Assembly (NCBI GenBank): GCA_039715015.1 | Contig: JBDLIE010000006.1 | Location: 1 to 64,000 of the forward strand | DNA length: 64,000 bases | Direction: 5' to 3' | Origin: Thermodesulfobacteriota bacterium | GTDB taxonomy: Bacteria > Desulfobacterota > Desulfobulbia > Desulfobulbales > SURF-16 | In this document: positions 11,425-45,262 of the stretch, in pieces | Layout of the letters: each line of letters begins with the position of its first letter | Position numbering within the stretch: the stretch's first letter is position 1 | Position numbers and translations under genes: made by a program | Notes under the pieces: model-generated | The model's database searches: none | What the model was told of the DNA's origin: nothing | What the model saw: only the letters and a program-made list of their open reading frames with translations

Positions 11425-13758
11425 TTAAAACGGTTGCATCACCCAGATACCACAAGGACAGGTATCGGAGCAGAAGCCGCAGGCAATACATTTGTCATCA
11501 TCGGAGACGTACTGGAAGGTACCGTCGGGCAGCTTCTCACGAGTGATGGCCTGGGTCGGACAGATGGTCTCGCAGAGGTGGCAGTCGCGGCAGGTACCGC
11601 AGCTCATACAACGCTCCGCCTCAGTACTCTCGGAAACACCACATTGTTCAGGGACATAATGGGCATGGGTCAGGCTGGCTTGAGGGATAAGATCCTTGGC
11701 AAAGCCATGCCATTCCTCCCCCTTGAACTCAGCCAACAGGGCCTCTGCCGTATTCTTACCGGCACCAAGGGCATTGGTAGCAAGACCGGGACGCTCCACG
11801 TCACCAATGGCAGAGATCTTAGGATCAGAGGTGCGGCCGGCAGCATTACACTTGACCCAGGCAGCACCACCCACGGTGACAACCTCCACAGAGTCGGGCA
11901 GAAACTTCAGGGCCGGGACATCACCAATGGAGATGATCACGGTCTGGGCCGGAATGAGCTGACCAGCAGCGTCCACCAGGCCTTCCTCGGTGACTTCCTT
12001 GGTCTGCACCGGCCATTTGAACTTGGCGCCCAAGGCCTCGGCAGCAGCTTTCTCCTTACCAAAGGCAAGGGGCTTCTGGATATCCACCAGGGTCACCTGC
12101 TCGGCTCCCAGCTTGTAGGCATCGCAGGCCACGTCACAGCCAACATTACCGGCACCGATGATCACCACTTCCTTACCTACCTTGGAAGGATTATCGCTCT
12201 TGGCATCTTTCAGGAAATCAAGGGCAGGGATCACTGATTCATGACCTGGGAAGGGGATGGTGCGCGGCTGGTGGGTACCGACTGCGACGATCACGTGGTC
12301 ATAGTCCTTCTTCAGCTCGGCAAACTTCTCCTTGGTCATGGCAACCTCGAAATTAACCTTGATATTCGGCACTTTCATGAAGCGGTCAATCTCAGCGTCC
12401 CAGATGGCCTGCGGCATCCGCTCCCAGGGGATAACCTGGGCCAGCTTGCCGCCGAGCTTGGTATCTTTTTCAAAGATATGGGCCTCAATACCGGCTTGGG
12501 CCAAGTGCCAGGCGGCGTTCATACCAGCAGGACCACCACCGATAATGGCCACCTTTTTGCCGGTGGCCTCAGCCTGGGCAGGCGATTTGGCATCCTTGGC
12601 AGCCCGACCAAGCATCTGAACATCAATCTTCTCATCCACCGTCTGACGCGAACAATTCTGCATACAGAGATTGGGGCAGATATGACCACAGATAGAGGCG
12701 GGCAGCGGCGTGTAGTCCATCAACATCTCATACGCCTCTTCCGCCTTACCCTCCCGCATCAAACGGAGGCGGTCAATGGTGGGGATATGGACCGGGCAGT
12801 AATAGGAGCAGGGCGCAGCCTTGTCGCGGTTGGCCCAAAAGGGCTTCTTGCGGCGCAGATCACCACTCTCAACCATGCCGATCACCGAACGATCCAGGCC
12901 AGGGGCCAGATCGCGGATGGGGTCGCCACCGCCGAAACCAGGATTCCAGACGGTGCGTTTAAACTCCTCCATGGACATGGGGCTGGTCTTCATCAGGGCC
13001 CTTTCCTGGGGAGGAATGGCATCGAGCATGGACCACTGATCACGCTTGGAGAGTTCATCAAGCAATTCCGGGCGACCGATCTCGTTTAGATAGTTGGGGA
13101 GGCGGTCCAGCAGCCACTGCCACTGCTCATCATCTGGTAAAACCGCCTTGACATTGATCTGGGAGTAAGAACCGTCGATCTTGCCGCGGTAATAGATGGA
13201 ACCGCCAACCATACCGACGCAGGGCCGGTAGCCCAGAACATTGTCGGGATTCTTGGCGTCCACACCGCAGACCACGGCGATACCGCCGCAGTTAAACTCG
13301 GCAAAGGAGTCACCGCAGGAACCAAGAACCCAGAGCTCCGGCTTCTTATATTCAGGGTTCCACTTGGTCATGGTCAGGCCGCGGGCGCCGATGGAACCGC
13401 CGATATAGACCTTGCCCTCGGCCATGGCGTTACAGATACCGTTGGTGGCCTCACCCTTAACGGTGATATCCGCACCAATATTCAACCAGCCGACATCATC
13501 GGAGGCCGGGCCGTTGCAGACGATCTTGGTGCCGGGCATACCCATGCAGCCCAGCCGCTGACCGCAGGGACCGTTGATCTCAATATTAACCGGCTCGCCG
13601 CCTGACTTGAGGCGGCCGCCGACATTATGCTGACCATAGGTTTCAAGAACCAGGTCATGGGACTTGGTGAAGGCCTCCTGCACCAGATTTTCAAAATTCT
13701 GGGTGCTGATCCGCTGGCCGTTTTCATCCAGTCCTTTTACAGTTATTTTCGTACTCAT
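11425..13758 (-). CDS. glutamate synthase subunit: GltB C-terminal (GXGXG) domain fused to a GltD-like FAD/NAD(P) oxidoreductase and ferredoxin
   Basis: N-terminal Gly-rich beta-helix; CP...CGHICPNLC cluster; IGGGPAG and IGAGNVG.D; two C-terminal CxxCxxCxxxC. Confidence 0.88.
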   Translation of the reverse strand: MSTKITVKGLDENGQRISTQNFENLVQEAFTKSHDLVLETYGQHNVGGRLKSGGEPVNIEINGPCGQRLGCMGMPGTKIVCNGPASDDVGWLNIGADITVKGEATNGICNAMAEGKVYIGGSIGARGLTMTKWNPEYKKPELWVLGSCGDSFAEFNCGGIAVVCGVDAKNPDNVLGYRPCVGMVGGSIYYRGKIDGSYSQINVKAVLPDDEQWQWLLDRLPNYLNEIGRPELLDELSKRDQWSMLDAIPPQERALMKTSPMSMEEFKRTVWNPGFGGGDPIRDLAPGLDRSVIGMVESGDLRRKKPFWANRDKAAPCSYYCPVHIPTIDRLRLMREGKAEEAYEMLMDYTPLPASICGHICPNLCMQNCSRQTVDEKIDVQMLGRAAKDAKSPAQAEATGKKVAIIGGGPAGMNAAWHLAQAGIEAHIFEKDTKLGGKLAQVIPWERMPQAIWDAEIDRFMKVPNIKVNFEVAMTKEKFAELKKDYDHVIVAVGTHQPRTIPFPGHESVIPALDFLKDAKSDNPSKVGKEVVIIGAGNVGCDVACDAYKLGAEQVTLVDIQKPLAFGKEKAAAEALGAKFKWPVQTKEVTEEGLVDAAGQLIPAQTVIISIGDVPALKFLPDSVEVVTVGGAAWVKCNAAGRTSDPKISAIGDVERPGLATNALGAGKNTAEALLAEFKGEEWHGFAKDLIPQASLTHAHYVPEQCGVSESTEAERCMSCGTCRDCHLCETICPTQAITREKLPDGTFQYVSDDDKCIACGFCSDTCPCGIWVMQPF

Positions 13759-13773
13759 TGTATATTACCTAAA

Positions 13774-13810
13774 TTTACGGTTTCCAGTTTACAGTTTCCG
13801 GTTAACGGTT
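13774..13810. repeat. left arm: tandem heptamers forming an inverted repeat with 14155-14184
   Basis: TTTACGG TTTCCAG TTTACAG TTTCCGG TTAACGG TT; 13787-13810 is the exact reverse complement of 14155-14178. Confidence 0.95.
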
Positions 13811-14152
13811 CAACGAATTCACCAATGATTGCAGCATGCGAGTAATTGCCTTCACCTCGTCTATCCACTTTTGGGCCACATCATCACTAATTGTTTTTGA
13901 TTCCCTGGCAATATAGAGCTGTGTTCTTAACTCTGCGGCAGAACCTAGGGCGATATACAAAAAACGACTGAAATCTTTAGCTGTATTTCGCTCTGATCCC
14001 TCGGCAATATTACTAGGGATAGAAACGGCTGAACGAATCATCTGATCTCGCAGAGCATAGACCTTGCACTTAGATACCCCCTGAGTAAGAGCAACTGCAA
14101 GTCGACACGCTGCTTTCCAGACATCCAGATCTTCAAACGATCTACTCATCAT
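13802..14152 (-). CDS. four-helix-bundle protein (23S rRNA intervening-sequence protein family, Avd-like fold)
   Basis: SFEDLDVWK, DQMIRSAVSIPSNIAEG, RFLYIALGSAAELRTQL family motifs; 116 aa. Confidence 0.92.
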   Translation of the reverse strand: MMSRSFEDLDVWKAACRLAVALTQGVSKCKVYALRDQMIRSAVSIPSNIAEGSERNTAKDFSRFLYIALGSAAELRTQLYIARESKTISDDVAQKWIDEVKAITRMLQSLVNSLNR

Positions 14153-14154
14153 TC

Positions 14155-14184
14155 AACCGTTAACCGGAAACTGTAAACCGTCAA
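14155..14184. repeat. right arm: tandem heptamers, inverted relative to 13774-13810
   Basis: AA CCGTTAA CCGGAAA CTGTAAA CCGTCAA. Confidence 0.95.
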
Positions 14185-14197
14185 CCTCCTTCCTTAT

Positions 14198-15835
14198 CTA
14201 ACAAACATATCTAATATTCAGGCGATCAGCCGCGTCCTTATCAGCAATACCCAGGGCATCAGACATTCCAATGGGCAGACTCTGAGAGCGGCCCAGGGGC
14301 GCCATGGTCTTCTTGACCTCGATCTGGATGGCCTGGAAGGTCTCCACCACACGCTGGGCCACATCATCGGGATCAAGGCGGCGGTAGATCTTGGCGTTCT
14401 GGCTGGTAATTCCCTTGGGGCAGATACCAACGTTACAGACGTTACAGCGATTCCGTTCAGAACCAAGACAACCGGCCGCTGACTGCATGATGAACTTGCC
14501 CATGTGGACACCGGAGGCACCCAGCATGATAAGGGCCAAGGCATTCTGGACCACGTTGCCGTTCTTACCGACACCGCCGGCCGCAAAGATGGGAATCTCA
14601 TTCTGCTTGCCCTGCTTACAGAGATCAAGGTAGCAATCGCGGACATTGGAGGCGATGGGGTGGCCGGTGGCATTCAGAGAAATGTCATAGGCCGCGCCCG
14701 TTCCACCGTCAATACCGTCGATCATCAGCGCTGAGGCATAGGGATTACGGACAAGATTGTTCAACACTGACTTGGCTGAGGTGGACCCGGAGATCTTCGG
14801 ATAGACCGGTACTTTGAAGTTCCAGGCCATGGACATGGACTGGATCATCTTCATTACAGATTCCTCAATGGAATACAAGGTCTGATGAACCGGCGGGCTG
14901 GGCAGATCAACACCCTCAGGCACACCGCGCAGACGGGCGATGAGCTTGGAGACCTTGAACCACTGGAGCAGACCGCCGTCGCCGGGCTTGGCACCCTGGC
15001 CATACTTGATCTCAATGGCGGCCGGATCGCATTGCATCTCGGGAATGGCGCGGATGATCTCATCCCAGCCAAAATATCCGGAAGCGACCTGGAGAATGAT
15101 ATATTTCAGAAAGGGGCTCCTCAGTACCCAGGGAGGACAACCGCCCTCGCCGGTGGCCATGACCACCGGAATACCGAGCACCTCATTACAATAGGCCACC
15201 CCCTGAAGGAGACCGAGCCACATATTAGGTGACAGAGCGCCAAAGGACATGGAACCGATGATAAAGGGGAAGATCTCCCGCACCGGCGGAATCCACTCAC
15301 CGCTCAGCTTACGCTTTACATACTCCTCAGGGGGGAGGACGCGGCCAAGCAGGGTGTTATAAGAAAACTCATGACGACCGGCATCAAGGGCCGGATCGGT
15401 GAGCATGGAGATCCGGTTAAAGACGATGCGGTCAAGCAGGCTGCCACCCGGCTCGTTGCGGCGACCACCGCGCTTGGCGGCATCACCGCCAGCCGTGGCC
15501 TGAAAACGGTAACGGTCGCTATCATTAAAGCTCGGGGCAATGGCCTCGTTGGGGCAGACCATGGCGCAGGAACCGCAGCCGATGCAACGCCGGCCGACAT
15601 CGGTGTTCTGACGGATGCCGACAAAGGTTTTGTATGAGCTTCCCCGTTCCGAGGAGCTTAAAACTATCTTAGGCATGCGCTTGCGCATGTAGGTTAATTT
15701 AAGGGTATTCACCGGACAGACAGCCGCGCATTTCCCACAGAGGGTGCAGCGGTCTTCGCGGTGATTAATAATCCACGGCAGGTCGTTGGGACTTAAGCTG
15801 CCTGGTTGAGAGGAAATTGATCGAATTGAGACCAT
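14198..15835 (-). CDS. glutamate synthase FMN-binding (synthase) subunit with N-terminal ferredoxin
   Basis: CTLCGKC...CP and CIGCGSC...CP; GSMSFGALS, TGEGG, QVASG.FG, EIKYGQGAKPGDGG, GGTGAA; C-x7-C-x2-C-x4-CP. Confidence 0.9.
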   Translation of the reverse strand: MVSIRSISSQPGSLSPNDLPWIINHREDRCTLCGKCAAVCPVNTLKLTYMRKRMPKIVLSSSERGSSYKTFVGIRQNTDVGRRCIGCGSCAMVCPNEAIAPSFNDSDRYRFQATAGGDAAKRGGRRNEPGGSLLDRIVFNRISMLTDPALDAGRHEFSYNTLLGRVLPPEEYVKRKLSGEWIPPVREIFPFIIGSMSFGALSPNMWLGLLQGVAYCNEVLGIPVVMATGEGGCPPWVLRSPFLKYIILQVASGYFGWDEIIRAIPEMQCDPAAIEIKYGQGAKPGDGGLLQWFKVSKLIARLRGVPEGVDLPSPPVHQTLYSIEESVMKMIQSMSMAWNFKVPVYPKISGSTSAKSVLNNLVRNPYASALMIDGIDGGTGAAYDISLNATGHPIASNVRDCYLDLCKQGKQNEIPIFAAGGVGKNGNVVQNALALIMLGASGVHMGKFIMQSAAGCLGSERNRCNVCNVGICPKGITSQNAKIYRRLDPDDVAQRVVETFQAIQIEVKKTMAPLGRSQSLPIGMSDALGIADKDAADRLNIRYVC

Positions 15836-16935
15836 ATCTCTAACTCCTGTCTATCTGGAGGAATAATAACTGTGTGTTCACGCATGGGCTGGAAGTCTTT
15901 GGAAGGGTCCCGGTCCGGGATCATGGCATCCACCCCGCATATCTCAGAGGCCACGGCCCACTCGCCAGGCTTACCGCCAATGGTGGCCGGACGCAGCTTC
16001 TTGGCATCCATGGTCAAAAGGCAGGTCTCGTCGGGCAGGGAGCCGATGATGGCGTTGGGGCCATCAATAATAAGACGACGGCAGACATCACGCAGGCCAC
16101 GCAGGAAATCGCCCTGGGGATGGTCAGCCAGCTCCTTGTTTTGCAGCGGTGTCATCACATGCTTATAGGCCTGGAGGGGCAGCTTGAGCTGCTTGGTAAC
16201 GTAATGGAGGATATGGGCAAAGACCTCGGAATCTGATTGATAGCCCATATAACCGGGGAAACCCTTGCCGGACAGCCAGTCCTTAATCGGTACAAAGGCG
16301 GTATTCTCACCATTGGTCATGGTGGCCACACCTTCAATGAAGAAGGGGTGACAGGCGTAGAGGTTGATACCGTAGTTGGTGTTCTGACGGCCCTGGGCAA
16401 AACAGATGCGCGACTTGACCCGGTCGTTATTAAGGCCAAAGGCCTGACCGATTTCCAGGGGCCAACCAACCTCTTTGATCATGGCCACATCAGGCCACAG
16501 CGAGAAGGCGGTGAGGTCGGCGCCATGCTCCTCGCCATCCTTGCGGATACCGAGACGGGTCAACATCAACTCATGGCCCACCTCATCTTCGGAAAGAGAG
16601 TCCCAGGCCTTGGGCTGTTTATAGACGCGGAGAACATATTTATGGCGGTCTTTTGCCTCGATCATCGAGCGTTTCACCTCAAACTCATGATCATACTTCA
16701 ATTCAAAACCCTTGCTGTCCATAATCTCGTTGAGACGATGGAGGGCCGCAGGGGTGTGGGCAATTCCCGATAGAATCGGGTCCCCGGCCTTGTACTTGTA
16801 ATCTGAAAATTCCAGACCACGAAGCAATAAGCCGAGACCGCTGCCGTCATATCCCTCCTGCATGGACTCCATACCTTCCAAGACAGTAAAGGGAGAAAAC
16901 GCCTCACTCGCGGTTTTCATAGCTAACCGGCACAT
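15793..16935 (-). CDS. glutamate synthase amidotransferase subunit (class II GATase)
   Basis: N-terminal MC nucleophile; QGRQNTN, CHPF, NGE, SDSE and DGP motifs; AAGGAG SD. Confidence 0.9.
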   Translation of the reverse strand: MCRLAMKTASEAFSPFTVLEGMESMQEGYDGSGLGLLLRGLEFSDYKYKAGDPILSGIAHTPAALHRLNEIMDSKGFELKYDHEFEVKRSMIEAKDRHKYVLRVYKQPKAWDSLSEDEVGHELMLTRLGIRKDGEEHGADLTAFSLWPDVAMIKEVGWPLEIGQAFGLNNDRVKSRICFAQGRQNTNYGINLYACHPFFIEGVATMTNGENTAFVPIKDWLSGKGFPGYMGYQSDSEVFAHILHYVTKQLKLPLQAYKHVMTPLQNKELADHPQGDFLRGLRDVCRRLIIDGPNAIIGSLPDETCLLTMDAKKLRPATIGGKPGEWAVASEICGVDAMIPDRDPSKDFQPMREHTVIIPPDRQELEIWSQFDQFPLNQAA

Positions 16936-45134: not shown

Positions 45135-45165
45135 AAGTGAGGCATCCACTTTTAAGAATTTGAGC

Positions 45166-45253
45166 AATAAGAATGTGAGAAATAAGTAGAAGGAAGAGTT
45201 GTTAATTAAGAAAAGTACCTTCTTCTTAAATTCTTATTTCTCACATTCTTATT
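45166..45253. repeat. AT-rich 21-bp perfect inverted repeat built from alternating 7/8-mers
   Basis: AATAAGAATGTGAGAAATAAG (45166-45186) / CTTATTTCTCACATTCTTATT (45233-45253). Confidence 0.9.
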
Positions 45254-45262
45254 TCTGCTTTT

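Follow-up and report, generated by a model that had tools for sequence, protein, structure and literature searches.

The cassette and its host operon

In the window, by which we mean the whole 64,000-nt stretch of DNA that was analysed, an open reading frame (ORF) for a four-helix-bundle protein lies between two glutamate-synthase-type genes, and all three are co-directional on the minus strand. The ORF is enclosed by inverted arrays of 7-mers, with which it forms a cassette. The features, in the order of transcription, are as follows (evidence in brackets).

14198-15835, minus strand: host gene, 545 aa, glutamate synthase FMN domain preceded by a 4Fe-4S domain at the N terminus (PF01645, E 4e-56)
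14185-14197, minus strand: purine-rich, Shine-Dalgarno-like 13-nt spacer from the upstream stop codon to the first heptamer (sequence, junction comparison)
14150-14184, minus strand: upstream (5') arm, four heptamer units at 14157-14184 and one degenerate in-register unit
14155-14178, minus strand: right half of a perfect 24-bp inverted repeat (sequence)
13802-14152, minus strand: four-helix-bundle ORF (PF05635 / TIGR02436), 116 aa (profile matches, model, structure match)
13774-13815, plus strand: downstream (3') arm, inverted, five units at 13774-13808 and one degenerate unit
13787-13810, plus strand: left half of the perfect 24-bp inverted repeat (sequence)
13759-13773, minus strand: 15-nt spacer that likely holds the downstream gene's ribosome-binding site (junction comparison)
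11425-13758, minus strand: host gene, GXGXG fused to a GltD-like pyridine-nucleotide oxidoreductase, 777 aa (domain matches)

The earlier note, made from the sequence alone, had seen a 116-aa ORF between two glutamate synthase genes of the same direction and had thought it more AT-rich than its neighbours. Both observations are borne out, as the profile matches place the genes at 14198-15835 and 11425-13758 on either side of the ORF, and its GC content is 44% compared with 56-57% in the neighbour genes (GC3 0.40 compared with 0.66-0.67). The downstream host product combines GXGXG and Pyr_redox domains, and its GltD-like matches score under the equivalog cut-offs. The first gene of the cluster (15793-16935, minus strand) matches nothing in Pfam or NCBIfam at 0.001; its N-terminal Cys and its position suggest that its product may be the amidotransferase part of a split glutamate synthase. 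Promoter and terminator scans gave chance-level results only, and Rfam has zero matches within 13000-15000. A single Logan contig spans 13382-14345 with zero mismatches, and the run concerned is possibly the one from which this DNA came.

The anatomy of the arms also agrees with the earlier description of tandem degenerate 7-mers, five on the left and four on the right, when up to two mismatches are allowed per heptamer. One more degenerate in-register unit, read from the sequence, lies inside each arm (13809-13815 and 14150-14156). The stop codon of the ORF (13802-13804) falls inside the fifth left unit and its ATG is the end of the unit at 14150-14156, matching the claim that one arm holds the stop codon while the other abuts the start. 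The perfect 24-bp inverted repeat (13787-13810 and 14155-14178) is exactly as claimed, and nowhere else in the 3.0-Mb genome does a perfect 24-bp inverted repeat have its arms spaced 100-1500 nt apart. Long direct repeats are absent within 13400-14600. The 5' arm also contains, as read from the sequence, an 11-codon frame that starts with TTG and whose stop codon overlaps the cassette ATG. In the spacer at 13759-13773, the AGG-to-ATG spacing is identical to that of the empty 12-nt junction of a relative (G028).

The ORF product scores above the curated cut-off of both family profiles (113.3 bits compared with 33.8, and 113.7 compared with 24; PF05635 / TIGR02436), and its structure model contains four helices with a pLDDT of 93.9. 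The model matches Xcc0516 (2GSC) with a TM of 0.86-0.91 and, more weakly, Avd with a TM of 0.67-0.77 at 13-16% identity, so the fold shared with Avd that the note had named is seen in the model. The predicted pI is 9.3, and the conserved residues include W12, Q37, R40, S44, N48, E51, G52, R55 and E74. We recognised no nuclease or transposase motif in the protein, which matches PF05635 only; this genome yielded no GxxExxY/PDDEXK_3 partner, and six Y1_Tnp matches are all on other contigs, without a shown link to the cassette. The homologue structures 2GSC and 2RLD contain five chains each, from which the cassette protein would also be a pentamer; a four-copy complex prediction gave a median of 0.40 against a mark of 0.42, the proposed ring having five copies. 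In the accessible part of a study of a diversity-generating retroelement (DGR) structure, one RNA stem-loop is touched by each of the five Avd protomers, and the crevices between the protomers hold flipped-out bases, the ligand being RNA (10.1101/2023.10.23.563531).

The junction in relatives and copies at other sites

We read the glutamate synthase junction at 50 loci (30 including this genome, plus 20) from ~52 strongly matching genomes among 61 searched; one junction (G007) runs into a contig end and was excluded, leaving 48 relatives. The cassette is present in two of the 48, G025 and G010, whose proteins are 77% and 62% identical to the cassette ORF and which both carry the unit type of this copy. 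In seven of the 48 the junction consists of a 12-15-nt spacer only, which gives a net insert of 427 nt at this site. Within the same genus, none of the six genomes with a complete junction carries the cassette; in five of them the place is taken by a different hairpin, ~114 nt long, and the sixth is empty. Other relatives have, at the same junction, gene-less arrays of 7-mers or 9-mers that belong to several further unit types. This junction has, then, been occupied repeatedly by distinct small elements. The note had proposed a cassette like an intervening sequence (IVS), perhaps mobile and transposase-free, and had named empty sites as a check; the bare spacers, and a close relative of the cassette at another operon junction, support a discrete, optional, transposase-free cassette with the IVS layout.

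Two details of the other occupants are worth recording. The ~114-nt hairpin (L005, L007, L008, L009, L162) lies directly after the stop codon with TAA at both ends and leaves the ribosome-binding site intact, and a 71% homologue is found elsewhere in this genome (C73:3672-3789). At the junction of genus g9 (L030, L032, L143, L145), the gene-less heptamer is the arm unit of two cassettes of the four-helix-bundle type, L051 and L052, located elsewhere in G015 and G033.

The three cassette-filled genomes belong to three genera of one clade in which empty genomes are interleaved. The trees of both flanking genes leave this clade partly open, and the G010 copy has no supported placement as sister to this copy. 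Compared with the G025 copy, the ORF has a dN of 0.144 and a dS of 1.67, and with a dN/dS of ~0.09 it is under long-term purifying selection. Its dS (1.6 or more) is at least that of the flanks (0.8-1.7), suggesting that this copy may go back to an old inheritance, accompanied by losses, and may not be actively mobile. A single ancient gain followed by several clean losses is possible, as are several independent gains. Import by flank recombination was considered and rejected, as third-position identity to G025 and G010 does not rise near the junction beyond noise. A target-site duplication is not visible at the three filled sites, which are all old (dS ~1 or more).

Six genomes, out of 401 from the order, contain a match to the cassette protein at E <= 1e-33. 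The copy in G227, second in closeness at 66% identity, has the same unit type and lies between zwf and pgl, and the copies in G090 and G071 (57%) have a closely related unit and lie between ispG and proS, the neighbour names having been assigned by reading translations. By the same kind of reading, the C-terminal tails of several top homologues resemble translated arrays of the same unit class. A sample of 61 genomes around this one has the PF05635 family in 46, with 0-8 matches per genome.

This genome has two further family copies. The one at C5:7363-7720 (L002) has an ORF that is frameshifted after about residue 75 and an inverted AGAAG-type array on both sides; the other, on C34, is cut by the contig end and has a heptamer array downstream. 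Examining paralog flanks had been another check named in the note, and both paralogs are repeat-flanked, the C34 copy being truncated. Gene-less arrays matching the arms of these two copies occur at several sites, often within 10 nt of a stop codon, while gene-less arrays of at least three units of the present unit type are absent from this genome. One gene-less inverted AGAAG-type array, with the unit seen around the broken C5 paralog, lies in the window at 45153-45256, and similar copies are at C5:17200-17380, C9:36600-36780, C29:18770-18950 and C68:11000-11110. A fatty-acid synthesis operon (C5:9983-11560) has 7-mer and 9-mer arrays at three consecutive gene junctions. Contigs end at or beside 7-mer or 9-mer arrays at C34:1-380, C31:1-45, C89:6375-6425, C1:50-110, C88:6387-6436, C36 and C51. 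With so many contig ends in or near arrays, further cassettes may be unassembled.

Family-wide anatomy of the arms and the RNA readings

The family set comprised 199 loci, of which 185 with full flanks and distinct proteins were kept. Inverted arms of 7-9-mers are the rule around PF05635 genes across many phyla: an inverted-repeat score of at least 14 is reached by 112/185 family loci, compared with 0/300 host ORFs and 7/300 cross-paired arms, and the best repeat period is 7 in 151 loci, 8 in 24 and 9 in 4. In the 138 period-7 elements, the unit has the consensus T-K-N-N-M-R-G, in a register chosen by our own iterative alignment, with a final G in 96%, and its polarity is fixed relative to the ORF, with the G-type before and the complement after. 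The base profile is equal on both arms (last-position G 95% and 93%). Under a relaxed rule, 4-5 units were counted in 84/138 elements in the 5' arm and likewise in 84/138 in the 3' arm. Two loci (L064 and L076) have, besides the downstream arm, a complete gene-less hairpin of their own unit on the upstream side of the ORF. Of 62 loci held out as a separate set, 58 were usable: 33 have 7-mer arms, 19 have a best period of 8-9, four have period 6 and two are array-less. The viral collection yielded only two family loci.

Unit similarity climbs with protein identity between elements, a trend that co-inheritance alone would lead one to expect. In training on 98 representatives, significant associations were those of residue 102 with base 6, residue 5 with base 1 and residue 54 with base 2. 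A residue-to-base code was rejected because these associations were not replicated in 33 held-out elements (19 dereplicated; p 0.10-1.0), and a test on independent pairs had 2-5 pairs only, too few for significance.

Several of these properties bear on the possibility that the gene is a domesticated post-transcriptional regulator, whose pentamer would bind G-type heptamers in single-stranded mRNA after stop codons and tune the translation or decay of its host operon and of other array-bearing operons. Binding to periodic RNA repeats is familiar from TRAP. The long-term purifying selection on the ORF fits such a role, as does the placement of the elements by crude ORF calls, the 5' array starting at most 20 nt from the upstream stop codon in 60/93 and both neighbours being co-directional in 68/92; in the accessible parts of the sources, Avd binds RNA (10.1101/2023.10.23.563531) and a regulatory role is proposed for TAACTGA repeats before start codons (PMC4679880). 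However, the 3' arm keeps the opposite-strand motif equally strictly, which binding to single-stranded mRNA would not need. In addition, the host genes are unrelated between sites, most close relatives lack the cassette at the glutamate synthase operon, and there are no further targets of this unit type in the genome. We consider a regulator of this kind unlikely.

The pairing of the arms speaks to a different possibility, that the cassette is an intervening sequence of the mRNA whose arms are kept for RNA pairing, RNase III cutting the stem so that the ORF is released and the glutamate synthase transcript is broken in two. The long transcript stem proposed in the note does hold as a fold, since the sense RNA of this copy folds with z = -6.5 (0/100 shuffles were equally good), its helix can run for 26 bp uninterrupted, and three identical units follow one another alike in the two arms (with the unit pools given, p 0.025). 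The host genome encodes RNase III, with which cleavage of the 24-26-bp stem would be physically possible. In the accessible text of PMC4990558, which also cites a Leptospira S23p IVS, the 23S rRNA IVS of Coxiella burnetii carries an S23p ORF and has a 28-bp stem that is cut by RNase III in vitro.

As a selected functional part, the stem does not have family-wide support. Selection for pairing of the arms within the transcript should leave more G·U than A·C among their mismatches on the sense strand. In the unit register of 134 elements, which like all elements in these statistics are related and not independent, we counted 94 G·U and 102 A·C (fraction 0.48, CI 0.41-0.55), with 70 and 78 after dereplication and 67:74 in local alignments, a comparison subject to the caveat that strict Watson-Crick selection would purge both alike; the weak pairing of most elements argues against such strict selection. 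The control stems of this genome do prefer G·U, with 12 G·U and no A·C in the acceptor stems of 38 tRNAs (Fisher p 0.0004 vs arms) and 39 G·U and 18 A·C in 209 terminator-like hairpins (Fisher p 0.007 vs arms). The arm duplex energy is better on the sense strand in 61 and on the antisense strand in 64 of the 134 elements (p 0.69), the median longest helix is 13 bp on the sense and 14 bp on the antisense strand, and a helix of at least 20 bp is found in 33/185 loci on the sense strand compared with 44 on the antisense strand.

The order of the units gives the same picture. Mismatches number 349 in order compared with 370 (p 0.014), and this apparent pairing excess was rejected because the reversed-order control matches it (351). 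At least three identical units in order occur in 5/76 elements, compared with 4.2 expected, and this copy is among the five. The sister copies at the glutamate synthase junction (G025 and G010) reach a longest pairing of only 12 bp, indicating that the perfect 24-bp stem is peculiar to this copy; it possibly arose by template switching. With these results, the RNA-stem reading of the arms is weakly supported, and we regard an mRNA intervening sequence as quite unlikely. The lack of an RNA-pairing signature across the family suggests instead that the arms are likely DNA end-sites.

Least probable is that the gene is a passenger between separate slippage-prone or mobile repeats with which its protein does not interact: gene-less heptamer and nonamer hairpins of several types do occupy the same junction in relatives, intergenic heptamers are abundant in Xanthomonas, Nostoc and Beggiatoaceae with the protein unmentioned in the main texts (PMC4679880, PMC4692102), and no residue-to-base code was replicated, but inverted arms are the rule around PF05635 genes and almost absent around host genes, the two arms share their own unit to a degree that cross-paired arms reach in 7/300 only, and the polarity of the unit is fixed relative to the ORF.

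A DNA end-site reading and known systems

We favour a strand-symmetric reading of the arms as DNA sites because both carry the same motif on opposite strands and the pairing signature is missing. That the arrays are the DNA end-sites of a 427-nt insertion cassette, likely bound by the encoded five-subunit ring, has in our judgement an even chance of being right. The cassette lies in the gap that separates a stop codon from the ribosome-binding site that follows, and the protein would be expressed from the host operon transcript. Each subunit crevice would likely hold one unit, a model that fits the one invariant G per unit and the 4-5 units per arm. The arrays would probably be bound as single-stranded DNA, and an enzyme, of the host or acting in trans, might then take over the bound ends and carry out the insertion or removal of the cassette and the gene-less copies. 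The inverted ends would give rise to the long RNA hairpin, and to RNase III excision of a cassette that lands in 23S rRNA, as a side effect, and the 23S rRNA IVS would be one landing site of the same element. Counting against the DNA-site reading, no catalytic motif, partner enzyme or target-site duplication was found at this locus, and the known ligand of Avd, in the accessible part of its source, is RNA and not DNA. The high dS of the ORF, the absence of gene-less arrays of this unit type from the genome and the failed replication of the residue-to-base associations count against it as well.

A bolder generalisation, which we think less likely than not, is that these are widespread transposase-free elements in which a non-catalytic pentameric ring reads 7-9-base end arrays and drives insertion between stop codon and ribosome-binding site, the rRNA IVS and the intergenic heptamers being its landing sites or gene-less offspring. 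The strand symmetry shifts the first question from RNase III processing to DNA binding, and it raises a decidable one, namely whether the protein binds its own repeat as single-stranded DNA, double-stranded DNA or RNA. The cassette links a very large protein family of unknown function to the heptamer repeats of bacteria, which have long lacked an explanation, and to the intervening sequences of rRNA, and one junction supplies filled, empty and differently filled alleles.

In REPIN/RAYT systems and MITEs, gene-less inverted-repeat copies lie between genes along with a rarer gene-bearing copy that has the same repeats. The present family is similar in having gene-less copies and a rarer gene-bearing copy with its own flanking repeats. 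As in insertion sequences and MITEs, presence-absence polymorphism and unrelated sites are found, while an encoded or cognate transposase is not; unlike in REPIN/RAYT and MITE systems, the gene is neither an HUH nor a DDE transposase, and each end is a periodic 7-9-mer array instead of a hairpin REP or a terminal inverted repeat with a duplication. The cassette protein's model shares its four-helix fold with Xcc0516 (2GSC), BT_0352 (2RLD) and Avd (4DWL, 8UB7). In contrast to Avd of DGRs, the cassette is flanked by glutamate synthase genes, and no reverse transcriptase or template repeat adjoins it. The family is reportedly often found outside rRNA, according to the TIGR02436 notes. In the literature covered, mainly papers outside subscription, we found no description of a gene-plus-arms cassette in operons outside rRNA. 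In the accessible parts of the sources, PF05635 genes are placed between cas genes (PMC3936711) or the protein is named as an annotation only (PMC5524665, PMC8700078), and the ProPhylo paper (PMC3226654), considered as a possible earlier description and rejected, gave zero term matches.

The Coxiella IVS, as described in the accessible text of PMC4990558, resembles the cassette in its PF05635 ORF, its terminal inverted repeats, the tandem heptamers before the ORF and its size (428-444 nt compared with 427 nt), and its unit GACAGAT rotates into the T-K-N-N-M-R-G register with equal polarity. An enclosing inverted repeat with a long stem is likewise present here (24-bp repeat and 26-bp helix; 12 bp in the sisters). 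In contrast to the Coxiella IVS, the cassette lies between two protein genes, outside rRNA and without an Rfam match, a location that excludes it from the rRNA IVS class. The Coxiella ORF is said to be decaying (PMC4990558), and that of the cassette is intact and evolves under purifying selection. Across the family, the arms show no selection for RNA pairing.

Gene-less intergenic heptamers have been described as TAACTGA in Beggiatoaceae (PMC4679880) and as GGGAATC in Xanthomonas and Nostoc (PMC4692102), with their origin left open in the main texts, where 'helix bundle' and 'S23' have 0 matches (main texts only, supplements aside). As described there, they are like the cassette arms in their 7-base period and intergenic position and in having the G-rich strand directly after stop codons and its complement directly before start codons. 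They often form convergent pairs, as in the cassette arms, and both rotate into the T-K-N-N-M-R-G register. The complement of TAACTGA itself occurs among the arm units of three elements of the family (L110, L169 and L176).
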